A DNA stretch of 64,000 nucleotides, taken from the sequence record PP400784; one strand, 5' to 3'. The DNA is from Escherichia phage FL38. The notes beneath the pieces were generated by a model. That model was not told the DNA's origin and made no database searches. It saw only the letters and a program-made list of their open reading frames with translations. Positions 4,544-59,774 of the stretch are shown here, in pieces. The translations under genes and the position numbers were made by a program. Positions within the stretch are counted from its first letter, which is position 1; the number at the start of each line of letters is the position of its first letter.

Positions 4544-7333
4544 ATGGCAGATTTAAGCAGAATCCAATTTAAACGCACTAGCACTAAAGGTCGTAAACCT
4601 GATGCTAGTACGATGAATCCGGGGGAATTGGCAATCAACCTTGCGGATCAATATCTTCTTACTAAAAATGATTCCGGTGCTATTATCAATTTAAGTTGTC
4701 CTCCTGTTTATGACCGCGATGTTACAATGGCGGGTAAGGTTAAAGGTAATAATTATATCTTAAGTAAAACCGCTAACTATCTGGAAGATCAGACCGCACG
4801 AGATCTTAATTACTTTGGTGCTTTCCGAACTAATGGACAAGATGGTCTTTTAGATCTAACTCTTAATGTTCCTCATTCTGCTGGCATTAATCATGGTCGA
4901 GGATTTACTTTCCGTTATGCGACTGGCGGATCTCGTGTTGAAACCTATGGGTATAATGCACAGGGACAAAAAGCATTTAGCTATAAAATGTATCACGAAG
5001 GTGATAAACCAACTCCAGGAGAATTGAACGTCTATAGCAAACAAGAAATTGACCGGATGTTTGTTAAGAACGTTAAAATGGTTGTTCCTTCTGGTGGTAC
5101 AAACCGTGGTTATTTTAAAATTGCATCCGCAATGATCCCGCAGAGTGGTCGGATGGCGTTTCTGCGAATCTATGGTGGTAATGGATATAATGTAAACTCA
5201 TATGACCAAGTTGATTTTCTTGAAATTGTTATTCGTAGTGGTAATAATAACCCTAAAGGCGTTAGTATTGCTGCATATCGTCGAAATTCTTTGAACGTCC
5301 ATGAAGTATTTGCAATTAATACTTCCGGTGATAGCTATGACATTTATGTTAACTATGGTCGTTACACTGATAACGTTATTGTAGAGTTTGGAAAAACTGT
5401 TGACGTCGCATTGACTGTTCATGATGTTCCTGAATTTTCGGCGACTAAACCAGAAACCGGAACTAAATTTGATGCTCGTGTTATTACGATGTTCAACACC
5501 GAAAACAAAGCCGGAACATTGATGTTTGATAATAACAATCAGTTAACCTATGATATTGTTAGCCTTAGCAATGGTCCTGATGATGTTAGAAATTATCTGC
5601 GTAAATTCCGAAGTAAAGCGGGTGAAATGATTTGGCATGAAACCGTTCAGGGTGCTGTATATCGTCTTGCTACTGGAACTACTGATTCTACGGAAGTTCT
5701 TAGAGTTGATTCTAACAGTGCTCTCCCGGGTAGCTATAAAGGATATGTAATTACTGGTAAAATGGAATTGCACGGTAGCGGTAGTGCGATGAATTTACAC
5801 CGCCAGACTGGTCAAGCTGCATATATGGCGTGGTGGGATCGTCGTGATGGTAAAAACCAACGTAGTGGTTATATCGGCCATGCGGATGGTACTACTGATG
5901 GTTTTGTGTGGCGTAATGATGTTGGTGCGAACTCATTTGATTTGGAAAGTAGTGGACAAGTAAATTTGACTACAGGAAAAACAAAAATTGTATATACCAA
6001 CGGACAATATTATTCCGCTAACTCTGATGCATTCCGTATGATTTACGGCAATTATGGCGCATTCTGGCGTAATGACGGCACTAAAGTTTATCTTCTTTCT
6101 ACTGCCGAAAATGATCGTTTTGGTGGATGGAACGGCAACCGACCATTCATTTACGATTTGACTTCCGGTAACGTTCAATTAGGCGGTGACGGTAACGAAG
6201 CTGCATTAACGTTAGAACGTGCAAGCAAAGCCGCTCGTTTTACGGGTGATGTTTATGTAGAAAAAGGTTTCCTTCATTTCTCTAGTGGACGATTAGGATC
6301 TCGTGATTTCTTTAAAATCAACCATTGGGGTGATAGCAATAACGGTCGTGATAACATTTTGCAGTTTGAAGACAATAGCGGTGCACACTTCACAACTGAA
6401 CGTAAAATGGCAACCGGTGAAATTACTGCGCGATTTAAAGGATTTGTGCGTGTAGAATCTGGCGAAATTACATTCCATGCTAACCGTGGTTCTTCTTCGC
6501 AATTTAGTCTCAATACATGGGGTAATGAATCACGAAAACAAGTTTTTGAATGTAAGGATGCAACAAGTTATCATTGGTATACCGAACGTACTGCGGGTGG
6601 AACTGGTCCGGTTAAGTTCTCTGTTGCAGGTTCTTTCTATAGCGGAAGCGATGCTAACGTAGGCGGTAGTCTGAATTTTGGTAATGCTATTCAACGCGGC
6701 GCTAGCGTCATTACTATAGATTCTGGTTCTGCGGGTGCTGGTTCTTTTGCATCTCAACATGATGATAACGTCAAAGCACCTATTTTCCAACGTTTAGACC
6801 GTGGTGATGCGTCTACATATGTTCCTTTGATCAAGCAACGTTATGTTCAAGGTGCAGTAACATTCTCGTTGGGTATGCTTCTTAATGAAGGTTCATGGCG
6901 AGTTCATGTTAAAGGTTCTGGTGTTGAATCTAATACTACCTTCTATAAAAACGGCGATTTCCAAGCTGGACGCAATGGTAACTTTAACGACGTTTACATT
7001 CGCTCTGATGCTCGCCTTAAAATCAACAAGGAAGAGTATAAGGAGAATGCCACTGATAAAGTTAATCGCTTGACGGTATACACCTATGACAAGGTTAAAT
7101 CTTTAACCGACCGTACTGTCATTGCTCATGAAGTTGGTATTATTGCTCAGGATCTTGAAAAAGAATTACCGGAAGCAGTAACAACTTCTAACATCGGCGA
7201 TCCCGATAAGCCAGAAGAGATCTTAACAATTTCTAACTCTGCTGTCAACGCTCTTTTAATTAAGGCGTTTCAGGAAATGAGCGAAGAATTGAATGCCGTT
7301 AAAGCTGAACTAGCGGAACTTAAAAAGAATTAA
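4544..7333 (+). CDS. 37: long tail fiber distal subunit (gp37-like) with a C-terminal intramolecular-chaperone-like domain, 929 aa
   Basis: ATG at 4544; synteny 34-35-36-37-t; motif YHEGDKPTPGEL near the N-terminus; the last ~110 aa begin with SDARLK, which matches the autoproteolytic chaperone domain of T5 pb1 and endosialidase tailspikes. Confidence 0.75.
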   Translation: MADLSRIQFKRTSTKGRKPDASTMNPGELAINLADQYLLTKNDSGAIINLSCPPVYDRDVTMAGKVKGNNYILSKTANYLEDQTARDLNYFGAFRTNGQDGLLDLTLNVPHSAGINHGRGFTFRYATGGSRVETYGYNAQGQKAFSYKMYHEGDKPTPGELNVYSKQEIDRMFVKNVKMVVPSGGTNRGYFKIASAMIPQSGRMAFLRIYGGNGYNVNSYDQVDFLEIVIRSGNNNPKGVSIAAYRRNSLNVHEVFAINTSGDSYDIYVNYGRYTDNVIVEFGKTVDVALTVHDVPEFSATKPETGTKFDARVITMFNTENKAGTLMFDNNNQLTYDIVSLSNGPDDVRNYLRKFRSKAGEMIWHETVQGAVYRLATGTTDSTEVLRVDSNSALPGSYKGYVITGKMELHGSGSAMNLHRQTGQAAYMAWWDRRDGKNQRSGYIGHADGTTDGFVWRNDVGANSFDLESSGQVNLTTGKTKIVYTNGQYYSANSDAFRMIYGNYGAFWRNDGTKVYLLSTAENDRFGGWNGNRPFIYDLTSGNVQLGGDGNEAALTLERASKAARFTGDVYVEKGFLHFSSGRLGSRDFFKINHWGDSNNGRDNILQFEDNSGAHFTTERKMATGEITARFKGFVRVESGEITFHANRGSSSQFSLNTWGNESRKQVFECKDATSYHWYTERTAGGTGPVKFSVAGSFYSGSDANVGGSLNFGNAIQRGASVITIDSGSAGAGSFASQHDDNVKAPIFQRLDRGDASTYVPLIKQRYVQGAVTFSLGMLLNEGSWRVHVKGSGVESNTTFYKNGDFQAGRNGNFNDVYIRSDARLKINKEEYKENATDKVNRLTVYTYDKVKSLTDRTVIAHEVGIIAQDLEKELPEAVTTSNIGDPDKPEEILTISNSAVNALLIKAFQEMSEELNAVKAELAELKKN
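7004..7333 (+). other. predicted intramolecular chaperone (peptidase S74-like) domain at the C-terminus of gp37
   Basis: RSDARLKINKEEYKEN...AELAELKKN; the Ser of SDARLK is codon 821 (7004-7006), in frame with the 4544 start. Confidence 0.6.
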
Positions 7334-11533: not shown

Positions 11534-11562
11534 ATTGTAGGGGATCGGCGATCCCCTGTCAA
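11534..11562 (-). promoter_or_regulatory. early promoter TTGACA-[GGGGATCGCCGATCCCC]-TACAAT; the 17-nt spacer is a palindrome with two GATC sites
   Basis: Palindrome at 11540-11556; drives 11347..11502. Confidence 0.6.
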
Positions 11563-15905: not shown

Positions 15906-16907
15906 TTAGTAATGGCTAAAACCTTCGGTTACATCTTCAACCACATAGTAACGATGACAGCGCATTTTGGCATTCGCATAATCTTTCGGGATACTTACAA
16001 CGTGACGCGGATCAACTTTACATTTAATGATTCGGCCTCGTCCACCGCCATAGTGCGGAATATAGTGTTTAGCTGCAACGTGGAGGCCATTAGAGCAAGT
16101 GCGATCATCATCTGGGTCCACGTCTTTACGCTTCATTTTAACCGTGCGACCTGGGCTATTATCAAACGTATGCGTAAAGAAATCTTTATAATCAACATCA
16201 ACACGTTTCCATGCATAGAAACAACCATCTTCCACGATCTCAATGTCGTTGTGCTCTAAGAAGTCAAATAGACGATCTACGGCCTTACGGCTAGGGTTTT
16301 TCTTGCACTTCTCAAAGAAGTTCAGATAGTGCGTATATGGCTTATTCTCTTTAATCGACTCCACAACTCGACGAGTCAGATTATTATCAAGAACAATATT
16401 ATGATAATACACAATACCATTTTCGATACGGAAAGCGCCGTGATAATATACTTCAACCGCTTTCTTAATGTCAATCAGCGTAATAGCTTTGATGAAATCA
16501 TTATGTTTAATCGCTTCCAGTGCTTCATTAAAGTTAACATGCGATGGATCAGCAGTATAAACAATGTCACCACATGTAATAGTAATAAACTTAGTTGAGG
16601 CTATTGCTACGATTTTTGAGGAAGTAGTCACGGGCTTTTTTGCGCGTTCACCGCCTTTTCCTTTACTGGTTTTACGGCGTGCTTTACGTTTTTCTAGTGC
16701 CTTGCGACCTTCCGCTACTGCGTCTTTCTGAATCAGTAATACACGGGAGGCAGTACGACGAGATACCCCAAATGCTGACGCAAGTGCTTCGCGGGTAGTA
16801 AACTTACCTTCGCCCCACTGTTTAGCCAGTTTGATTTGTTTCGCAGAATCCAGGCATTGAACGTTACGGTCAGAGCCGGTGATTTTTGCTTTAGTCATAG
16901 TATTCAT
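15906..16907 (-). CDS. rIIB: rIIB protein
   Basis: C-terminal half closely matches remembered T4 rIIB (AVDRLFDFL, YAWK, FDNSPG, HPRHVVSIP.DY.AKMR, YVVEDVTE); HTH-like N-terminus; position next to rIIA. Confidence 0.85.
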   Translation of the reverse strand: MNTMTKAKITGSDRNVQCLDSAKQIKLAKQWGEGKFTTREALASAFGVSRRTASRVLLIQKDAVAEGRKALEKRKARRKTSKGKGGERAKKPVTTSSKIVAIASTKFITITCGDIVYTADPSHVNFNEALEAIKHNDFIKAITLIDIKKAVEVYYHGAFRIENGIVYYHNIVLDNNLTRRVVESIKENKPYTHYLNFFEKCKKNPSRKAVDRLFDFLEHNDIEIVEDGCFYAWKRVDVDYKDFFTHTFDNSPGRTVKMKRKDVDPDDDRTCSNGLHVAAKHYIPHYGGGRGRIIKCKVDPRHVVSIPKDYANAKMRCHRYYVVEDVTEGFSHY

Positions 16908-16948
16908 TCCTCTATTAGTTGGGCGACTCTCGCCGCCCGATTCACATC

Positions 16949-16977
16949 ATTATACCAGAATTATTTTGCTTCTACAA
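16949..16977 (-). promoter_or_regulatory. promoter-like element TTGTAG-N17-TATAAT upstream of rIIB
   Basis: Lies inside the 3' end of the small HTH ORF; followed by hairpin GGGCG..CGCCC and GAGGA before the rIIB ATG. Confidence 0.45.
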
Positions 16978-17092
16978 CCTTGCGGATTGTGCGGTCTGAT
17001 ACATTATAGATTCGTGCCAGTTCGCCTTTAGTCAAGCCGCGAGCGTATTGTTTACGGATTGTTTCTTTCTGGATAGCGGTCAGTTTAGTCAT
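16961..17092 (-). CDS. small helix-turn-helix protein, 43 aa (not in ORF track)
   Basis: ATG 17092 with AAGAGGTGA upstream, directly after the rIIA stop; hand translation MTKLTAIQKETIRKQYARGLTKGELARIYNVSDRTIRKVVEAK. Confidence 0.45.
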   Translation of the reverse strand: MTKLTAIQKETIRKQYARGLTKGELARIYNVSDRTIRKVVEAK

Positions 17093-17103
17093 AATATCAC
17101 CTC

Positions 17104-19212
17104 TTAAAATTTAACATTCTTAACCAGTTTCATAAAGTCTTGTGCGCGTTTGTCATTATGCAGAATACGATACCAGTTATCTACAATATCATACAGTAAC
17201 GGGCTATTCTCTTTAAACTTCGCACAAACTGCTTTAATTCGTTCGTTTGCTACCGTGAATTTTTCATCACAAATCTTTTTAGTTTCTTCGTCCATAATCC
17301 AACGAGTACGAAGGAGTAACTTGGAAACCTCTTTATTATAATGACGACCGTACAGTCTGTCAATAAATTCTGGAACACAGCGTTCTAGTTCATCGTCATG
17401 AAACAACATAGTGATCACACCCAGATATTCGCCATACCCCAGATGATTGGTCTTAACCTTCTTAGCCAGACCAGCCAGCTTACCGCGAACAAATTCTAGC
17501 GCACATTCCAATTGTTCGTCAACGAGATATTTTTGTGTCTCGTTTCGAGTAATAATATACTTTGTTACCCCGAAGTAGTCAAGCGCCGTGTGTAATGTAT
17601 TTTCACTATGGATCGATTTACGACTACGGCTTTCGAATGAATCACCTACGCGGAACATGTGCAAGCCTGATAACTCGCGAATCTCTGCCGCTTTCATGTG
17701 ATGGCTGGTTTTATTCCAACTGTCACCAATCTTTTCCATGATATACACGTTAGGCAGCTTAGGAGTCGCTTCACGTTGTGTACGCTCGGTCTTCTCCGGT
17801 TTAACTGCTTTAGCACGCAGATCATCGGCCTCAGAAACTTTAATCACGGTCATTTCAGAATCATCATAATACTGTTTGATGTACTCGAAAGTTTCCATAT
17901 GTTTTTCGTTGCGCTGACGGAACACCAATACCTTTTTATTGATTCCGTATTCCTGGACCATGCCGTTAAGAGTCAGTGCACGCAGTTTCGGTTTATCGGT
18001 ATCATCAATAAGACACGTAATATCTTCTTTATGCATCCATACAAAATGCGTAATGTTGTATTGACTGCTAACGAAAGCAGGGCGCAATTTACTGATTGTG
18101 TTACGAGTACGATATAGAGTATACACCTGACCTTCTACGTCATTTGGCGAATCTTTACCCGCATTCACAAACTTATTATAGATTGCTACCGGATCATCCC
18201 ACTGCCCGATCTTACCCATCTTGCTAATAATATTGCGTTGAGTCGATGAATACTCGCTCATAAATTGCGCAAGTTTACGCTCTGTTTTAATGTTGGCGAT
18301 CTTCTCTTTAACCTTTTCCAACATCATTTCATTGATTTCTGCAATACGTTTTTCGATGTTCGCTTTAGTCTCAATTGACAAGTGAACTTCTTCACGCGAT
18401 GGCATCAGGTCCAGATCACCCAACTCAAAATTAATGTAAATGGTCTGGTGCTGGCGGTTTACAGCTTCTAACCATGTTCCGCGAACATATTCATACGGGA
18501 TCGGATACTGGATCTTACCCATGATTGCATATACTACATAGGAATCGTTATCACGCCCATTACAAACATAATAATTATCAAAGCTAGGGAAATAATTAAT
18601 TTCGATTGCATTGATATTAGGTTTGTGTTCCCCAAAATGACGCAGTACAAATTGCGCTTCTCGATGCCATGTCTGAATGTCTTTTTCTTTCACTGGAATA
18701 GTGATTTTCAGACCATTGTCTTCATAGGTCGGTTCGTCGAAAATCTGCACCATTTTCGGCATAGAGTTTTGCACAAATGCCGTAAAGCCATAAGCGCGAC
18801 CATTGTAATAGTTTACGATTGTAAAGGTGTCAGTGTAGCTATAAGCAGATTTCGCACCTAAACCAAAAGACCCGATATAGTCATTAGTCTGGTCTTTTGT
18901 TGATTCAAAGTAAACCGTAAACAGTTGTTCTAATTCTTTCTTAGACGGAATACCAGTACCATAATCACGCACAGAAAAATACGGTTCGATTGCAGTCGGT
19001 AAATGAATATCAAACGGACGATCTAAGGTTCCGGCTTCTTTGTGAGTGTCGGTAGCATTGCACGAATACTCACGGACGCAAGCACGCTCACAATATTGAT
19101 AAGTGTTCTTAGAAAGCACCATAAAAGCCTTGCTACTTGCTTTCAGTGAAAAATCAACCGCACCGCTCAGGTCACTGCCAAATACTTCTTCATTATCAAT
19201 ATGCATTTTCAT
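17104..19212 (-). CDS. rIIA: rIIA protein (GHKL-type ATPase fold)
   Basis: 702 aa; ATP-lid motif GSFGLGAKSAYSYTDTFTI matches remembered T4 rIIA (GGFGLGSKSPFSYTDTFSI); RDYGTGI G1 box; adjacent to rIIB. Confidence 0.85.
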   Translation of the reverse strand: MKMHIDNEEVFGSDLSGAVDFSLKASSKAFMVLSKNTYQYCERACVREYSCNATDTHKEAGTLDRPFDIHLPTAIEPYFSVRDYGTGIPSKKELEQLFTVYFESTKDQTNDYIGSFGLGAKSAYSYTDTFTIVNYYNGRAYGFTAFVQNSMPKMVQIFDEPTYEDNGLKITIPVKEKDIQTWHREAQFVLRHFGEHKPNINAIEINYFPSFDNYYVCNGRDNDSYVVYAIMGKIQYPIPYEYVRGTWLEAVNRQHQTIYINFELGDLDLMPSREEVHLSIETKANIEKRIAEINEMMLEKVKEKIANIKTERKLAQFMSEYSSTQRNIISKMGKIGQWDDPVAIYNKFVNAGKDSPNDVEGQVYTLYRTRNTISKLRPAFVSSQYNITHFVWMHKEDITCLIDDTDKPKLRALTLNGMVQEYGINKKVLVFRQRNEKHMETFEYIKQYYDDSEMTVIKVSEADDLRAKAVKPEKTERTQREATPKLPNVYIMEKIGDSWNKTSHHMKAAEIRELSGLHMFRVGDSFESRSRKSIHSENTLHTALDYFGVTKYIITRNETQKYLVDEQLECALEFVRGKLAGLAKKVKTNHLGYGEYLGVITMLFHDDELERCVPEFIDRLYGRHYNKEVSKLLLRTRWIMDEETKKICDEKFTVANERIKAVCAKFKENSPLLYDIVDNWYRILHNDKRAQDFMKLVKNVKF

Positions 19213-19907: not shown

Positions 19908-19936
19908 ATTATGATATATCCCCGATCCAGTGTCAA
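19908..19936 (-). promoter_or_regulatory. early promoter TTGACA-N17-CATAAT with GGGGA..TCCCC inverted repeat over the -10
   Basis: Drives 19683..19877. Confidence 0.55.
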
Positions 19937-20277: not shown

Positions 20278-20305
20278 ATTATAGAGAATCTCCCTTGTAT
20301 GTCAA
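20278..20305 (-). promoter_or_regulatory. early promoter TTGACA-N16-TATAAT followed by palindrome GGGAGTCTCCC
   Basis: Immediately downstream of the gp39 stop; drives 19944..20243. Confidence 0.55.
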
Positions 20306-33052: not shown

Positions 33053-33074
33053 CCGCCATTATACACACTTTATC

Positions 33075-35753
33075 TTAAATGTCAAACAGGTCTGTAAGAG
33101 ATGCCACTTTTTCATATTGCAGCTTTGCAGCCGTGGTAATGTTCTCCAGTGGTTTGACGAAAGTCTTATTAAACAACAAAGGCCAGTCTAACCACTTTAA
33201 CACCTCTGATTCAATTTCTGGAGGAATACGAGTACCGGACAACCAACCAAAACAGATTTCTCCAAACGGATTTCGATCTTTCAGCGGTACAATCATAACC
33301 TTCTCGCCTTCACGAATCGGATCTAGTCCGAATTTTCGAGCATTACGATTATAACACAATACACTCTTAACCGCATACGGACAACCCTTAATCGGATACC
33401 CGTTTGAATCGCTGTATTTCTGTAGGTTGTTTGCAGATGATACCGCAGCAACATCAAGATAGTCAAGTTTTCTAAATTCTTGCTCAAAAATACCGTAGTA
33501 TTCCTGCAATGACTCTTCACCTTCCTGCAACATACGGCGAATACATTCTTTCAGTGATTTCTGACATGCTTTAGGGGTGGAGCTACGTTGCGTTTCCAAG
33601 CCCATGATTTTTAGCTTAGGTTCAGCAAAGCGCGTTCCTTCCATATCCCAAACATTAAGAGCATAACGCTTTTTACCAGTCCAGAATCCACCGATACCCG
33701 CAGATTTCAATGGAGGACCAGCAATTGCCTCACGGTCCATAAACATCAAGTGCTCATAGTTGTTCATGTACTCGCATAACTCGCGATATCCCTTGTCGAT
33801 AATAGGTTCCATTCGATGTTTACCGAAATTATCAAGGAAGTCAACAAGTTTTTCGGTATCGTCGAAACGGTCTTCCCCGCCAACCTTATCAACAACATTG
33901 TTAACCAGCACATAAACGGAGTCAGTATCACAATAACGAACATATGCAAAATCGGTTGTTCCACAAAGCTCGTTTAAGTATTCGTTAATCTTACGCTCAA
34001 TCCACTGAATTGCAAGCTGACCAAACAAGGTGATCGCACTAGCGTTACGGAGATCATAAAAACGGAATTTAGGATTCCCCAACGCACCATAAAGGGAGTT
34101 GATCAAAACTTTACGAGAAAGCTGGTTTGTATTGCACAAGATCGACTCGTCTTTACATTCTTCCAGCAATTTCTCTAAGGCATCTTTACTTAATTCAGAA
34201 AGCATCGATTTAAACGCTTCATCAAAGTCGTGACGCACTTCAACGCTATAGTTAATGGTTCCTCCATAAACATGATTTTCATCGTGTAGAATCGCTTTAC
34301 AGAGTTCAGCATTGCGATCACATGCCAACATCATGTTTTTGTACTGCTTACGCTGATCGAATACCTTTTTAATCTCAATCGGTACGATACCGTGAATATC
34401 TTTTCTATACATCCATCCGTTAGGCGAGCAAGAATACTCATCACTCGGACGTGGTGCAGTTTTATTGATATACTCGTGCATCGGTGCAGCATCAAAAGAT
34501 CCAGCGATTGTTTCAGGCGAAATATTAACCTGTCGAATAATAGATGGGTACAGACTTGTTAAGTCAAAGCTCATCATCCAACGGTAAGCATTCGGCACAG
34601 GTTCTTTTACGAATGCGCCTGGATACGTCTGCTTAGGCTGTATCTTATTTTCCGGTACTACTTTACCCTCAGCTTTCAGAGATCCGAAGATAATAGCATC
34701 CCACACTTTCATCGGGTTATAAACATGGTTAAATTTAATCTTTGCATAGAAACATAGACTATACACCAGATCGATAAATCCACGCTTTTTATCAATCGCC
34801 AGAACACGATCAACGTCGCCGATGTTATAATCGATGTAAAGTTGATGGTTGTCATCACGCAATTTCTTTAACGGACCATCATAATCAACCTTACCGATTC
34901 CTGTCTCATATTCAGCAACATAATCTAATGCATATGTTGGTTGAGTCGTAAAGCTAAATTTCTTGTACAGGTCAATATAATCAAGGCTTTCGATCCCCAT
35001 GATCGTAAATGCTTCACGCTCGTTGCCAAAATCATCCTGTGAGATTCGGGATTTAATCTTACCGCACGGGCTTAGACGGTTAGCGGTTCTACTTCCGAAC
35101 TTATTACTGATACGTTTAATGATATATGGAATATCGAATGTTTCTGTGTTCCAGCCAGTGAAACCAACGGGTCGGTTTTCCTCAAAGAATCGGATGTATT
35201 CTAACAGCAATTCATCTTCTGTGTCATAGACGTTATAAACAACGCGCTCTACAATATCAGGTCGAAGAATAGACTTGCTAGATTCCCAGATTTCACCGTT
35301 TTTTCCTTTCAAATCAAATACAAAGAAACGATCATGTACGGAATCATAATGCGTAATTGCATCGATAGGATATTTCGCTTCTTCTGGTTTAGGAAATTCT
35401 GGGGCAGTGACCTCGATATCAACCCATGCTACACGGATTTTATTTCGGTCATATCGAATCTCTCCTTTATACGTATCAGACAGATAGGAGATGATAAAAT
35501 CATCCATCCCTAGCGCCTCTTGCCCCATTTCTCCCATCTTTTTACGCCATTTGTTGGCCTCGTTCATAGAGGGGAATTTTTTAGCAATGCAAGGCTTGCC
35601 ATAGATATCTTTATAATTCGTAACCATACCAGGCGCGGCATGATGAAATAAAGTTGGCGTATATTCAACGTAACGCTCTTGTTCTTGTCCAGCATCATCA
35701 ATATAACGCTCGTAGATCTTATCACCTACTCGCTCACATGACAGAAAATACAT
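33075..35753 (-). CDS. 43: DNA polymerase (gp43), family B with 3'-5' exonuclease
   Basis: Colinear match to remembered T4/RB69 gp43 (DIE, SFDLTSLYPSIIRQVNISPET, LINSLYGALGN, YCDTDS, KKRYALNV); start set to ATG 35753 after AAGGAG. Confidence 0.95.
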   Translation of the reverse strand: MYFLSCERVGDKIYERYIDDAGQEQERYVEYTPTLFHHAAPGMVTNYKDIYGKPCIAKKFPSMNEANKWRKKMGEMGQEALGMDDFIISYLSDTYKGEIRYDRNKIRVAWVDIEVTAPEFPKPEEAKYPIDAITHYDSVHDRFFVFDLKGKNGEIWESSKSILRPDIVERVVYNVYDTEDELLLEYIRFFEENRPVGFTGWNTETFDIPYIIKRISNKFGSRTANRLSPCGKIKSRISQDDFGNEREAFTIMGIESLDYIDLYKKFSFTTQPTYALDYVAEYETGIGKVDYDGPLKKLRDDNHQLYIDYNIGDVDRVLAIDKKRGFIDLVYSLCFYAKIKFNHVYNPMKVWDAIIFGSLKAEGKVVPENKIQPKQTYPGAFVKEPVPNAYRWMMSFDLTSLYPSIIRQVNISPETIAGSFDAAPMHEYINKTAPRPSDEYSCSPNGWMYRKDIHGIVPIEIKKVFDQRKQYKNMMLACDRNAELCKAILHDENHVYGGTINYSVEVRHDFDEAFKSMLSELSKDALEKLLEECKDESILCNTNQLSRKVLINSLYGALGNPKFRFYDLRNASAITLFGQLAIQWIERKINEYLNELCGTTDFAYVRYCDTDSVYVLVNNVVDKVGGEDRFDDTEKLVDFLDNFGKHRMEPIIDKGYRELCEYMNNYEHLMFMDREAIAGPPLKSAGIGGFWTGKKRYALNVWDMEGTRFAEPKLKIMGLETQRSSTPKACQKSLKECIRRMLQEGEESLQEYYGIFEQEFRKLDYLDVAAVSSANNLQKYSDSNGYPIKGCPYAVKSVLCYNRNARKFGLDPIREGEKVMIVPLKDRNPFGEICFGWLSGTRIPPEIESEVLKWLDWPLLFNKTFVKPLENITTAAKLQYEKVASLTDLFDI

Positions 35754-53701: not shown

Positions 53702-53729
53702 ATTATAGCATACTCCCTTCGCATGTCAA
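53702..53729 (-). promoter_or_regulatory. early promoter TTGACA-N16-TATAAT with inverted repeat GGGAGTA/TACTCCC around the -10
   Basis: The -35 overlaps the stop of the upstream gene; drives 53177..53671. Confidence 0.6.
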
Positions 53730-59070: not shown

Positions 59071-59099
59071 ATTATATGATAACCGCATTTTCATGTCAA
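59071..59099 (-). promoter_or_regulatory. early promoter TTGACA-N17-TATAAT with inverted repeat GCGGTTAT/ATAACCGC around the -10
   Basis: Drives 58728..59036. Confidence 0.6.
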
Positions 59100-59745: not shown

Positions 59746-59774
59746 AGTATAGGGGATCACCGATCCCCTGTCAA
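59746..59774 (-). promoter_or_regulatory. early promoter TTGACA-[GGGGATC-ACC-GATCCCC]-TATACT, palindromic spacer with two GATC sites
   Basis: Palindrome at 59752-59768; near-identical to the cassette at 11534-11562. Confidence 0.6.

Follow-up and report, generated by a model that had tools for sequence, protein, structure and literature searches.

The rII locus of the FL38 window

The DNA analysed here, referred to as the window, is a stretch of 64,000 nt from Escherichia phage FL38 (sequence record PP400784) and is a segment of a Krischvirus (RB49-like) genome. Within it we examined the rII locus, which has a central place in the history of genetics, and in particular a short gene, here called the mini-gene, that lies between rIIA and rIIB. 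All three genes are on the minus strand and are arranged as follows.

16961-17092, minus strand: the mini-gene (RB49p274 / phrog_15481), a 43-codon open reading frame (ORF), MTKLTAIQKETIRKQYARGLTKGELARIYNVSDRTIRKVVEAK, with its stop at 16961-16963
17097-17103, minus strand: Shine-Dalgarno (SD) sequence of the mini-gene, GAGGTGA, directly 3' of the rIIA stop and 4 nt before the ATG
17104-19212, minus strand: rIIA, 702 aa, the upstream cistron, with the stop TAA at 17106-17104
15906-16898, minus strand: rIIB, 330 aa, with the publicly annotated ATG at 16898 and the SD GAGGAA at 16912-16907

An earlier sequence-only reading of the window had reported a 43-codon ORF at 16961-17092 with a ribosome-binding site (RBS) after the rIIA stop, and both the sequence and the coordinates were right, the strand being minus. 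The ORF had also been called unannotated, which was incorrect. It is present in public records as a 'hypothetical protein' (RB49p274/NP_891845.1, kvi_140, KNU01_gp160 and the Phi1 record), and phrog_15481 (function: unknown) matched the mini-protein over its full length (E-value 3e-34, 117.7 bits, with residues 1-43 aligned to all 43 positions of the profile). No gene is described at this position in PMC7824862, in PMC1524935 or in the papers on the PeSL elements of RB49-like phages (PMC2839356, Arbiol et al. 2010; PMC4122927, Comeau et al. 2014), and the latter are silent on the rII locus. The gene had been catalogued before; new here are its placement in the family of helix-turn-helix (HTH) domains found at the RIIB N-terminus (RIIB-N), its exceptional conservation, and the organization of the rII locus in the Krischvirus clade as three cistrons with a PeSL between cistrons.

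As the sequence-only reading had stated, the two rII cistrons of T4 are adjacent, with no gene between them. In the window, the sequence AAGAGGTGA occupies 17105-17097 and the mini-gene ATG is at 17092, giving a gap of 11 nt from rIIA to the mini-gene. The gap between rIIA and rIIB of T4 is likewise 11 nt with the SD in the same place (TAA-TAAGGAAAATT-ATG in T4, TAA-GAGGTGATATT-ATG for the window mini-gene), and in the relatives described below the gap from rIIA to the mini-gene is 4-11 nt. For rIIB, the ORF listing puts the start at ATG 16907 (333 aa), which is directly on the SD GAGGAA, and the annotated ATG at 16898 has proper SD spacing. The match of RIIA to a GHKL ATPase was weak (HATPase_c_3, residues 77-140, below the cut-off).

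The 3.5 kb around the mini-gene shares 97-99% identity with 58 phage records (FL37, kvi, RB49, KFS-EC and others), and the mini-protein is retained at full length, with an aa identity of at least 95%, in 58 Krischvirus records. A large protein database included versions that are 98, 86, 86, 77 and 69% identical, each exactly 43 aa long, and a further version of 45 aa encoded upstream of an rIIB that is 62% identical to that of the window. Five divergent lineages from metagenomes have versions of 43-45 aa at this same position, with rIIA on one side and rIIB on the other. The order rIIA, mini-gene, rIIB was constant in loci L007, L008/L009, L010/L011 and L015/L016, which also share the larger neighbourhood, with the rII region located between topoisomerase subunit genes, and GAGGT(G/A)A adjoins the rIIA stop in L007, L008, L010 and L015 as well. 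A scan of IMG/VR using the mini-gene alignment recovered two near-identical Krischvirus contigs and one further locus, L014. The latter was discarded, as it belongs to an unrelated phage and encodes a 100 aa HTH protein that shares a short pattern only.

Between lineages, the ratio of non-synonymous to synonymous substitution (dN/dS) for the mini-gene was 0.04-0.33 and the proportion of synonymous differences (pS) was 0.48-0.89, with synonymous sites near saturation, and a core running from helix 2 to helix 3, TKGELAR[IV]YNVSDRTIR[KR]VVE, was invariant. When the window was compared with its relatives, the aa identity was 73-86% for the mini-protein, 61-66% for the RIIB core, 31-64% for the HTH that is part of RIIB and 39-44% for RIIA. 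No other product of the rII locus is as conserved as the mini-protein, and purifying selection on it is stronger than on RIIA or RIIB. Conservation of the reading frame in related phages, which the sequence-only reading had named as the test of its proposal, was strongly borne out in the five lineages. A non-functional leftover or chance ORF might be suspected given that the ORF is very short and comes without functional annotation or expression data, but its length, frame, RBS and position have been kept despite near-saturated synonymous sites and a dN/dS of 0.04-0.33, and the product has a confidently predicted fold and is the best conserved of the locus, making this explanation scarcely credible. 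The mini-gene is almost certainly a real gene and is probably translated.

Three syntenic but more distant loci (L017, L019 and L020), in which rIIB is 43-55% identical to that of the window, do not include the mini-gene. In each of them, RIIB begins with one canonical HTH, and the gap between rIIA and rIIB is 83-87 nt.

Fold of the mini-protein and its relationship to RIIB

In searches of Pfam, the mini-protein matched CENP-B_N with 26.0 bits (cut-off 21.2), and matches to Sigma70_r4, HTH_28, HTH_7 and other HTH families were weak and below their cut-offs. Pfam and PHROG scans of the mini-gene ORF detected an HTH alone and no nuclease domain. AlphaFold2 (AF2), run with an alignment of 28 sequences, predicted three helices (residues 6-18, 22-28 and 33-41) with a mean confidence (pLDDT) of 85.9. 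The neighbours of this model found with Foldseek were the DNA-bound HTHs of IstA transposase, gamma-delta resolvase, NarL/LuxR and CENP-B, with template modelling (TM) scores of 0.7-0.82; the E-values were 0.1 or worse because the domain is short (43 residues). The HTH character proposed from the sequence alone was upheld, and the mini-protein is very probably a three-helix HTH. The mini-protein is also very basic, with a net charge of about +7 as counted from the sequence. Together with the DNA-bound structural neighbours, this charge lends indirect support to a predicted ability to bind DNA. A sequence search of the PDB returned nothing significant for either the mini-protein or RIIB. Marginal PADLOC matches to mad1 (16.8 bits, mini-protein) and TmtA (19 bits, RIIA) were taken as noise.

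When 50,697 phage records were searched using tblastn, the top matches of the mini-protein other than to itself were the N-termini of RIIB from other Straboviridae, including Jiaodavirus (52%), Karamvirus CC31, Serratia X20 and Bp7. The alignment with RIIB N-termini that the sequence-only reading had suggested gave 41% pairwise identity with residues 7-45 of T4 RIIB, and a range of 37-52% with the RIIB N-termini of T4, Jiaodavirus and P0091. A profile of RIIB-N was then built from the first 60 residues of 118 RIIBs, all from outside the mini-gene clade, and used with Z = 1e6. The mini-proteins scored 48-57 bits with this profile. An attached HTH of L007, which was also not among the training sequences, scored 52.6 bits, and the HTH of the window RIIB 25-29 bits. 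Among all 1,024 six-frame segments of the window, the mini-gene ranked first (50.9 bits), followed by the rIIB N-terminus (28.9 bits), with the next segment at 8.7 bits. Comparison of the mini-gene alignment with the RIIB-N alignment using hhalign gave a probability of 99.2% and an E-value of 2e-19. On these profile comparisons, the mini-protein is very likely to be homologous to RIIB-N at the level of the family.

The RIIB of the window has an HTH of its own.

16731-16847, minus strand: HTH attached to RIIB, residues 18-56, ...REALASAFGVSRRTASRV..., AF2 pLDDT about 96

The sequence-only reading had seen the same pattern in the mini-protein and in this HTH. Homology to RIIB-N as a family was supported, but the resemblance to the window's own HTH is weak: the two are 28% identical, hhalign gave 91% over 21 columns, and BLASTP of the mini-protein against the window RIIB produced no alignment. 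Both have the same three-helix fold in the models. Within any one genome, the mini-protein and the attached units were 21-30% identical, and were no closer to one another than either was to the RIIB N-termini of other genera. The HTH attached to RIIB is best described as a diverged paralogue of the mini-protein. As the window RIIB retains its own folded HTH, the mini-protein is an extra copy and was not simply cut off from RIIB. A recent local duplication is ruled out by the 21-30% identity, and taken together with the absence of a BLASTP alignment this means that any duplication is old or that the copies came from different phages. The proposal of a detached or duplicated rIIB module therefore stands in so far as an extra copy is found at the position of the T4 rIIB start, and fails in so far as a recent local duplicate was implied. 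The mini-gene is not joined to the RIIB core, being separated from it by a stop, a 62 nt spacer and an rIIB ATG in another frame, and the same is true in the five lineages.

In the AF2 model of the window RIIB (pLDDT 85), the HTH is followed by a long helix (residues 58-79), a disordered K/R-rich linker (residues 80-93) and then the core. The basic linker, KTSKGKGGERAKKP, is specific to the clade and is predicted to be disordered. A Foldseek search of the PDB with the RIIB model returned matches to the HTH only, with no matching fold for the core (residues 96-330), and provided no functional lead.

The number of HTH units in RIIB is variable. In L007, a metagenomic member of the Krischvirus clade, the RIIB (4685-6064, plus strand) is 459 aa long and contains three tandem HTH units (residues 1-43, 56-111 and 144-184, units 2 and 3 being 65% identical) in addition to a free 43 aa gene. 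The RIIB of Aeromonas phage phiAS5 (P0076) likewise has three HTH units. These RIIBs resemble the arrangement in the window in that the HTH copy number has changed, but their copies are fused in one polypeptide.

The spacer and the promoters of the locus

The features found in the spacer between the mini-gene and rIIB and in the 3' part of rIIA are listed below.

16899-16960, minus strand: spacer between the mini-gene and rIIB, 62 nt, a PeSL-type cassette (promoter, GC stem-loop and SD)
16949-16957, minus strand: extended -10 of the putative rIIB promoter, TGgTATAAT, 3 nt past the mini-gene stop
16977-16972, minus strand: weak -35-like hexamer TTGTAG (3/6), within the last codons of the mini-gene
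16921-16938, minus strand: PeSL stem-loop, hairpin GGGCGGC-GAGA-GTCGCCC, 7 bp, GNRA-type loop, no U-run
17335-17363, minus strand: predicted sigma70 promoter TTGACA-N17-TATAAT (12/12), located in the 3' part of rIIA with the mini-gene ATG 271 nt further downstream

The sequence-only reading had placed the rIIB promoter-like element inside the 3' end of the ORF; the weak -35-like hexamer does lie there, but the extended -10 is past the stop. The same TGGTATAAT is present in L007. Folding of the spacer (74 nt) gave -18 kcal/mol with a z-score of -2.7, and the 7 bp GC stem dominates the structure. In all five lineages the spacer includes a -10-like hexamer and a GC stem of 7-9 bp, with a different stem sequence in each. 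The spacers of L008 and L010 are textbook PeSLs, TTGACA-N17/18-TA[CT]AAT, in which the stem encloses the -10 with the hexamer in the loop. These promoters match the consensus at 11/12 (L008) and 12/12 (L010) positions; in the window, the -10 is perfect with a TG extension and the -35 matches at 3/6.

The PeSLs described in RB49 and phi1 consist of a strong sigma70 promoter and a G(n)-loop-C(n) stem-loop, and are mediators of modular shuffling (PMC2839356, PMC4122927). The stem-loops terminate transcription in vivo in these phages (PMC2839356). The likeness of the window to the published elements is in the spacer and not in the protein, and comprises a putative intergenic promoter of the sigma70 type, a G/C-rich stem-loop at or near the -10, and a downstream SD and start codon. 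Unlike the textbook form, the window and L007 have a degenerate -35 that overlaps coding sequence and a TG-extended -10, with the stem downstream of the -10. No second PeSL is found upstream of the mini-gene. By analogy with the RB49 and phi1 elements, the hairpin at 16921-16938 is likely an attenuator or terminator of the transcript carrying rIIA and the mini-gene. As the PeSL lies between the cistrons, rIIB is predicted to form a separate transcription unit and the mini-gene is grouped with rIIA, to which it would be linked transcriptionally and probably also translationally.

The sigma70 promoter within rIIA has counterparts. Near-consensus promoters were found at nearly the same columns of the rIIA alignment in L010, L015 and L008, and further upstream in L007; no promoter was found at that position in L017, L019, L020 or T4. 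This promoter may be dedicated to the mini-gene. It recalls the arrangement in T4, which has an internal rIIB promoter.

That the mini-protein, as the sequence-only reading had supposed, modulates rII expression received no direct support. The inverted repeat in the spacer was considered as an operator for the mini-protein and rejected. The stem differs in each lineage whereas the recognition helix does not change, which makes an operator role unlikely.

The position of the mini-gene directly upstream of rIIB raises another possibility, namely that it is a cis-acting upstream ORF that sets rIIB expression, or that it is joined to rIIB by readthrough, frameshifting, bypassing of the gene 60 type or splicing. 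The window does include a take-off-like site (AAA-TAA), an in-frame rIIB AAA 71 nt further on and a hairpin in the gap. However, L007, L010 and L015 are without matching take-off and landing codons, the rIIB ATG is out of frame (65 nt from the stop), and a second in-frame stop precedes it. A group I intron would not fit into the spacer of 62 nt, and a search of 16700-17400 against Rfam found no match. Readthrough, frameshifting, bypassing and splicing were all ruled out on these grounds (frames, second stop, unconserved codons and spacer size). A regulatory leader peptide was also rejected, in view of the promoter and stem-loop that precede rIIB and of the strong conservation of the peptide. 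It is the amino acids that are conserved and not the frame alone, as seen in the invariant 21-residue core and a dN/dS far below 1; a promoter and terminator-type stem-loop intervene; and in all lineages an SD and ATG are present for rIIB itself. A cis-acting role is very improbable.

The gap between rIIA and rIIB in the loci that are without the mini-gene (L017:3418-3500, L019:3414-3500 and L020:3414-3500) contains a hairpin, a T-rich stretch and then a promoter of the T4 early type, GTTTAC...TATAAT. This order, terminator then promoter, is the reverse of that in the window spacer. Elsewhere in the window, about 30 near-consensus sigma70 promoters were seen on the minus strand (for example, 59746-59774, 11534-11562, 59071-59099, 53702-53729, 20278-20305, 19908-19936 and 33058-33085). 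Many are of the PeSL type, with a G/C stem-loop that lies between the -35 and -10, surrounds the -10 or follows it a short way downstream.

Origin and possible role of the mini-gene

The mini-gene profile was searched exhaustively against 1.84 billion representative proteins. The top full-length scores were to proteins with 3-7 tandem HTH copies. The best single-domain matches (40-48 bits) were the HTHs of HNH_3/NUMOD4, GIY-YIG and T5orf172 endonucleases, and unrelated HTH proteins of 49-60 aa also scored 40-48 bits, with the best RIIB N-terminus at 34 bits. Against this generic HTH set, which was itself chosen for similarity, the mini-gene alignment gave an hhalign E-value of 2e-26. The C-terminal HTHs of homing endonucleases (PHROGs 59, 1492 and 1872) are at least as similar to the mini-protein at the profile level as RIIB-N is, the shared motif being KLT..Q...I...Y..G.T..ELA..YNVS..TI..V, and homing endonucleases match phrog_15481 at the domain level. 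RIIB-N, the mini-genes and the endonuclease HTHs are mutual homologues at the profile level. As the endonucleases share the HTH family, descent from rIIB rests on position and synteny and not on sequence.

These data raise the possibility that the mini-gene is an independent HTH gene, or a domesticated homing endonuclease module, that was placed in the locus by PeSL shuffling, with a link to rII that is positional only and a product that would serve as a stand-alone factor in transcription or DNA binding. The endonuclease modules and the free 49-60 aa HTH proteins outscore any RIIB with the mini-gene profile, and the downstream border of the mini-gene is a PeSL, a known shuffling element in RB49 and phi1. 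The mini-protein also does not have the V-[KQ]-C-[LF] prefix (V-K-C-L in its RIIB form) that nearly all RIIB-attached units carry. Two free-standing relatives, P0205 and P0251, are found in non-rII contexts on short contigs where no rII genes were detected by eye.

Other observations argue the opposite. With the profile built in the reverse direction, from RIIB-N, the mini-protein ranks above all 149 generic relatives, and RIIB N-termini are its nearest relatives among sequenced phages. The comparison is biased by pool size, as the generic sequences with the higher scores were drawn from the far end of the distribution for a very much larger set (1.84 billion proteins). Only one PeSL flanks the mini-gene, and the upstream side adjoins rIIA with the 11 nt gap and SD position of T4 rIIB. 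The 205 nt from rIIA to rIIB are entirely taken up by the mini-gene and the PeSL, leaving no nuclease remnant. Unlike the endonucleases, the mini-protein has no nuclease domain and there is no room for one, its HTH is N-terminal and stand-alone rather than C-terminal, and the gene is syntenic in the rII locus rather than sporadically distributed. An independent origin is unlikely overall, although it has a real share of the probability. Were it correct, the finding would be an ordinary one, and the gain would be a better annotation for RB49p274/phrog_15481 ('RIIB-N-like HTH protein').

The explanation that we favour, with a little more than even confidence in the whole, is that the 5' end of rIIB has become a gene and that its product is a trans-acting nucleic acid-binding module of the RIIA/RIIB system. 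The mini-gene would then be an early gene of the Krischvirus clade and a third rII cistron, located where rIIB of the T4 type starts. On balance, derivation of the mini-gene from rIIB appears to be the better supported origin. The mini-protein shares its HTH family with the N-terminal HTH of T4-type RIIB (RIIB being a lysis inhibitor/RexAB counter-defence protein, PF26926 family), and the mini-gene has in common with T4 rIIB its position right after rIIA with an 11 nt gap. The link to RIIB is also supported by the variable HTH copy number seen in the RIIBs of L007 and phiAS5, with three units each, and by the single canonical HTH that is fused to RIIB in the syntenic relatives that are without the mini-gene. 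Unlike the T4 RIIB HTH, the mini-protein is free-standing: its frame has its own stop, and a promoter/terminator cassette separates it from rIIB. It also occurs alongside a second HTH, diverged and fused to RIIB, does not have the V-K-C-L prefix and is more conserved than RIIB.

In this scheme, the canonical HTH-coding 5' end of an ancestral rIIB would have become a separate gene, the split having arisen once it was followed by a PeSL cassette and a second rIIB 5' end with an HTH, now diverged. This arrangement may have been reached by duplication or by recombination with another phage, and PeSL-mediated recombination could plausibly have given rise to the architecture now seen. Expression of the mini-gene would accompany that of rIIA and be driven by two promoters, that of rIIA and the conserved one within rIIA. 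The PeSL stem-loop would end the transcript of rIIA and the mini-gene, and the PeSL promoter would restart transcription for rIIB. The mini-protein would act in trans as a DNA-binding module, contacting nucleic acid via the invariant helix 3 (SDRTIRKVV), and as a free subunit would perform the role that the fused HTH has in T4 RIIB. That the mini-protein works with the RII proteins via DNA binding is a more tentative proposition than its origin, and is less likely than not.

In T4, the 'B1 segment' at the start of rIIB, which was used for the frameshifts that revealed the triplet code, is deleted in r1589 and is dispensable for B function; it probably overlaps the HTH of RIIB. The mutant r1589 was confirmed to be a fusion of rIIA and rIIB.

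Several points weigh against the favoured explanation, in addition to the score of the generic HTHs, the missing prefix and the low identity between free and attached copies. A monomeric HTH of 43 aa is usually a weak DNA binder on its own. Assigning to the mini-protein the role of the fused HTH does not amount to a mechanism as yet. Reviews still describe the functions of rIIA and rIIB as unknown (PMC2993671). The attached units of L007 retain canonical recognition helices, and the free copy is therefore not simply compensating for a degenerate attached HTH. A literature search using the identifiers of the mini-gene found no paper that names the ORF and no Krischvirus transcriptome or proteome, and no expression, binding or genetic data on the mini-gene were found in the databases and literature searched.

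Expression of RIIB is toxic to E. coli and triggers a CARD/gasdermin system of Lysobacter (bioRxiv 10.1101/2023.05.28.542683). The free HTH could consequently be imagined as a decoy or modulator that competes with the RIIB HTH for a ligand or host sensor, tuning toxicity or hiding RIIB. The free copy has a canonical recognition helix and the attached one is altered in most lineages, and conservation of the mini-protein above that of RIIA and RIIB would be expected if it had a conserved host or phage target. However, L007 keeps the free copy despite its canonical attached HTHs, and the toxicity and sensing evidence is not from a Krischvirus. The idea is purely inferential and we consider it improbable.

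RB49 has neither MotA nor middle promoters (PMC1524935), and one paper, arguing from its domains, regards RIIB as a likely specific transcription factor (PMC7824862). A further suggestion, somewhat less probable again than a decoy, is that the mini-protein is a dedicated regulator in these phages, helping to switch early transcription. On this reading its HTH, likened to sigma region 4, would recognize the near-consensus sigma70/PeSL promoters, another conserved element or a host factor. A dedicated regulator would account for the much greater conservation of the mini-protein relative to RIIA and RIIB. If this were true, it would hint at a transcription- or DNA-directed role for the N-terminal domain of RIIB.

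Under the favoured derivation from rIIB, an RIIB-type HTH encoded as a separate protein of 43 aa would indicate that the module can act alone and is the most constrained part of the locus. The change from domain to gene, beside a PeSL shuffling cassette, would be an example of a change in gene architecture. The mini-protein also offers a very small handle, one that can be synthesized, on what the RIIB HTH binds, and interest in it would rise only with a defined target of the peptide.

Some of the wider HTH relatives have features of their own. Three of the genes near P0251 (L023:355-612, 1269-1607 and 1653-1892) contain in-frame stops under translation table 11, and another genetic code or coordinate offsets are possible. 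The metagenomic proteins P0126-P0141 consist of 4-7 tandem HTH units with the pattern KLT..Q...I...Y..G.S..ELA..Y.VS..TI.R, and some end in HNH or GIY-YIG domains. In P0183 (775 aa), such an HTH is combined with an RIIB core.

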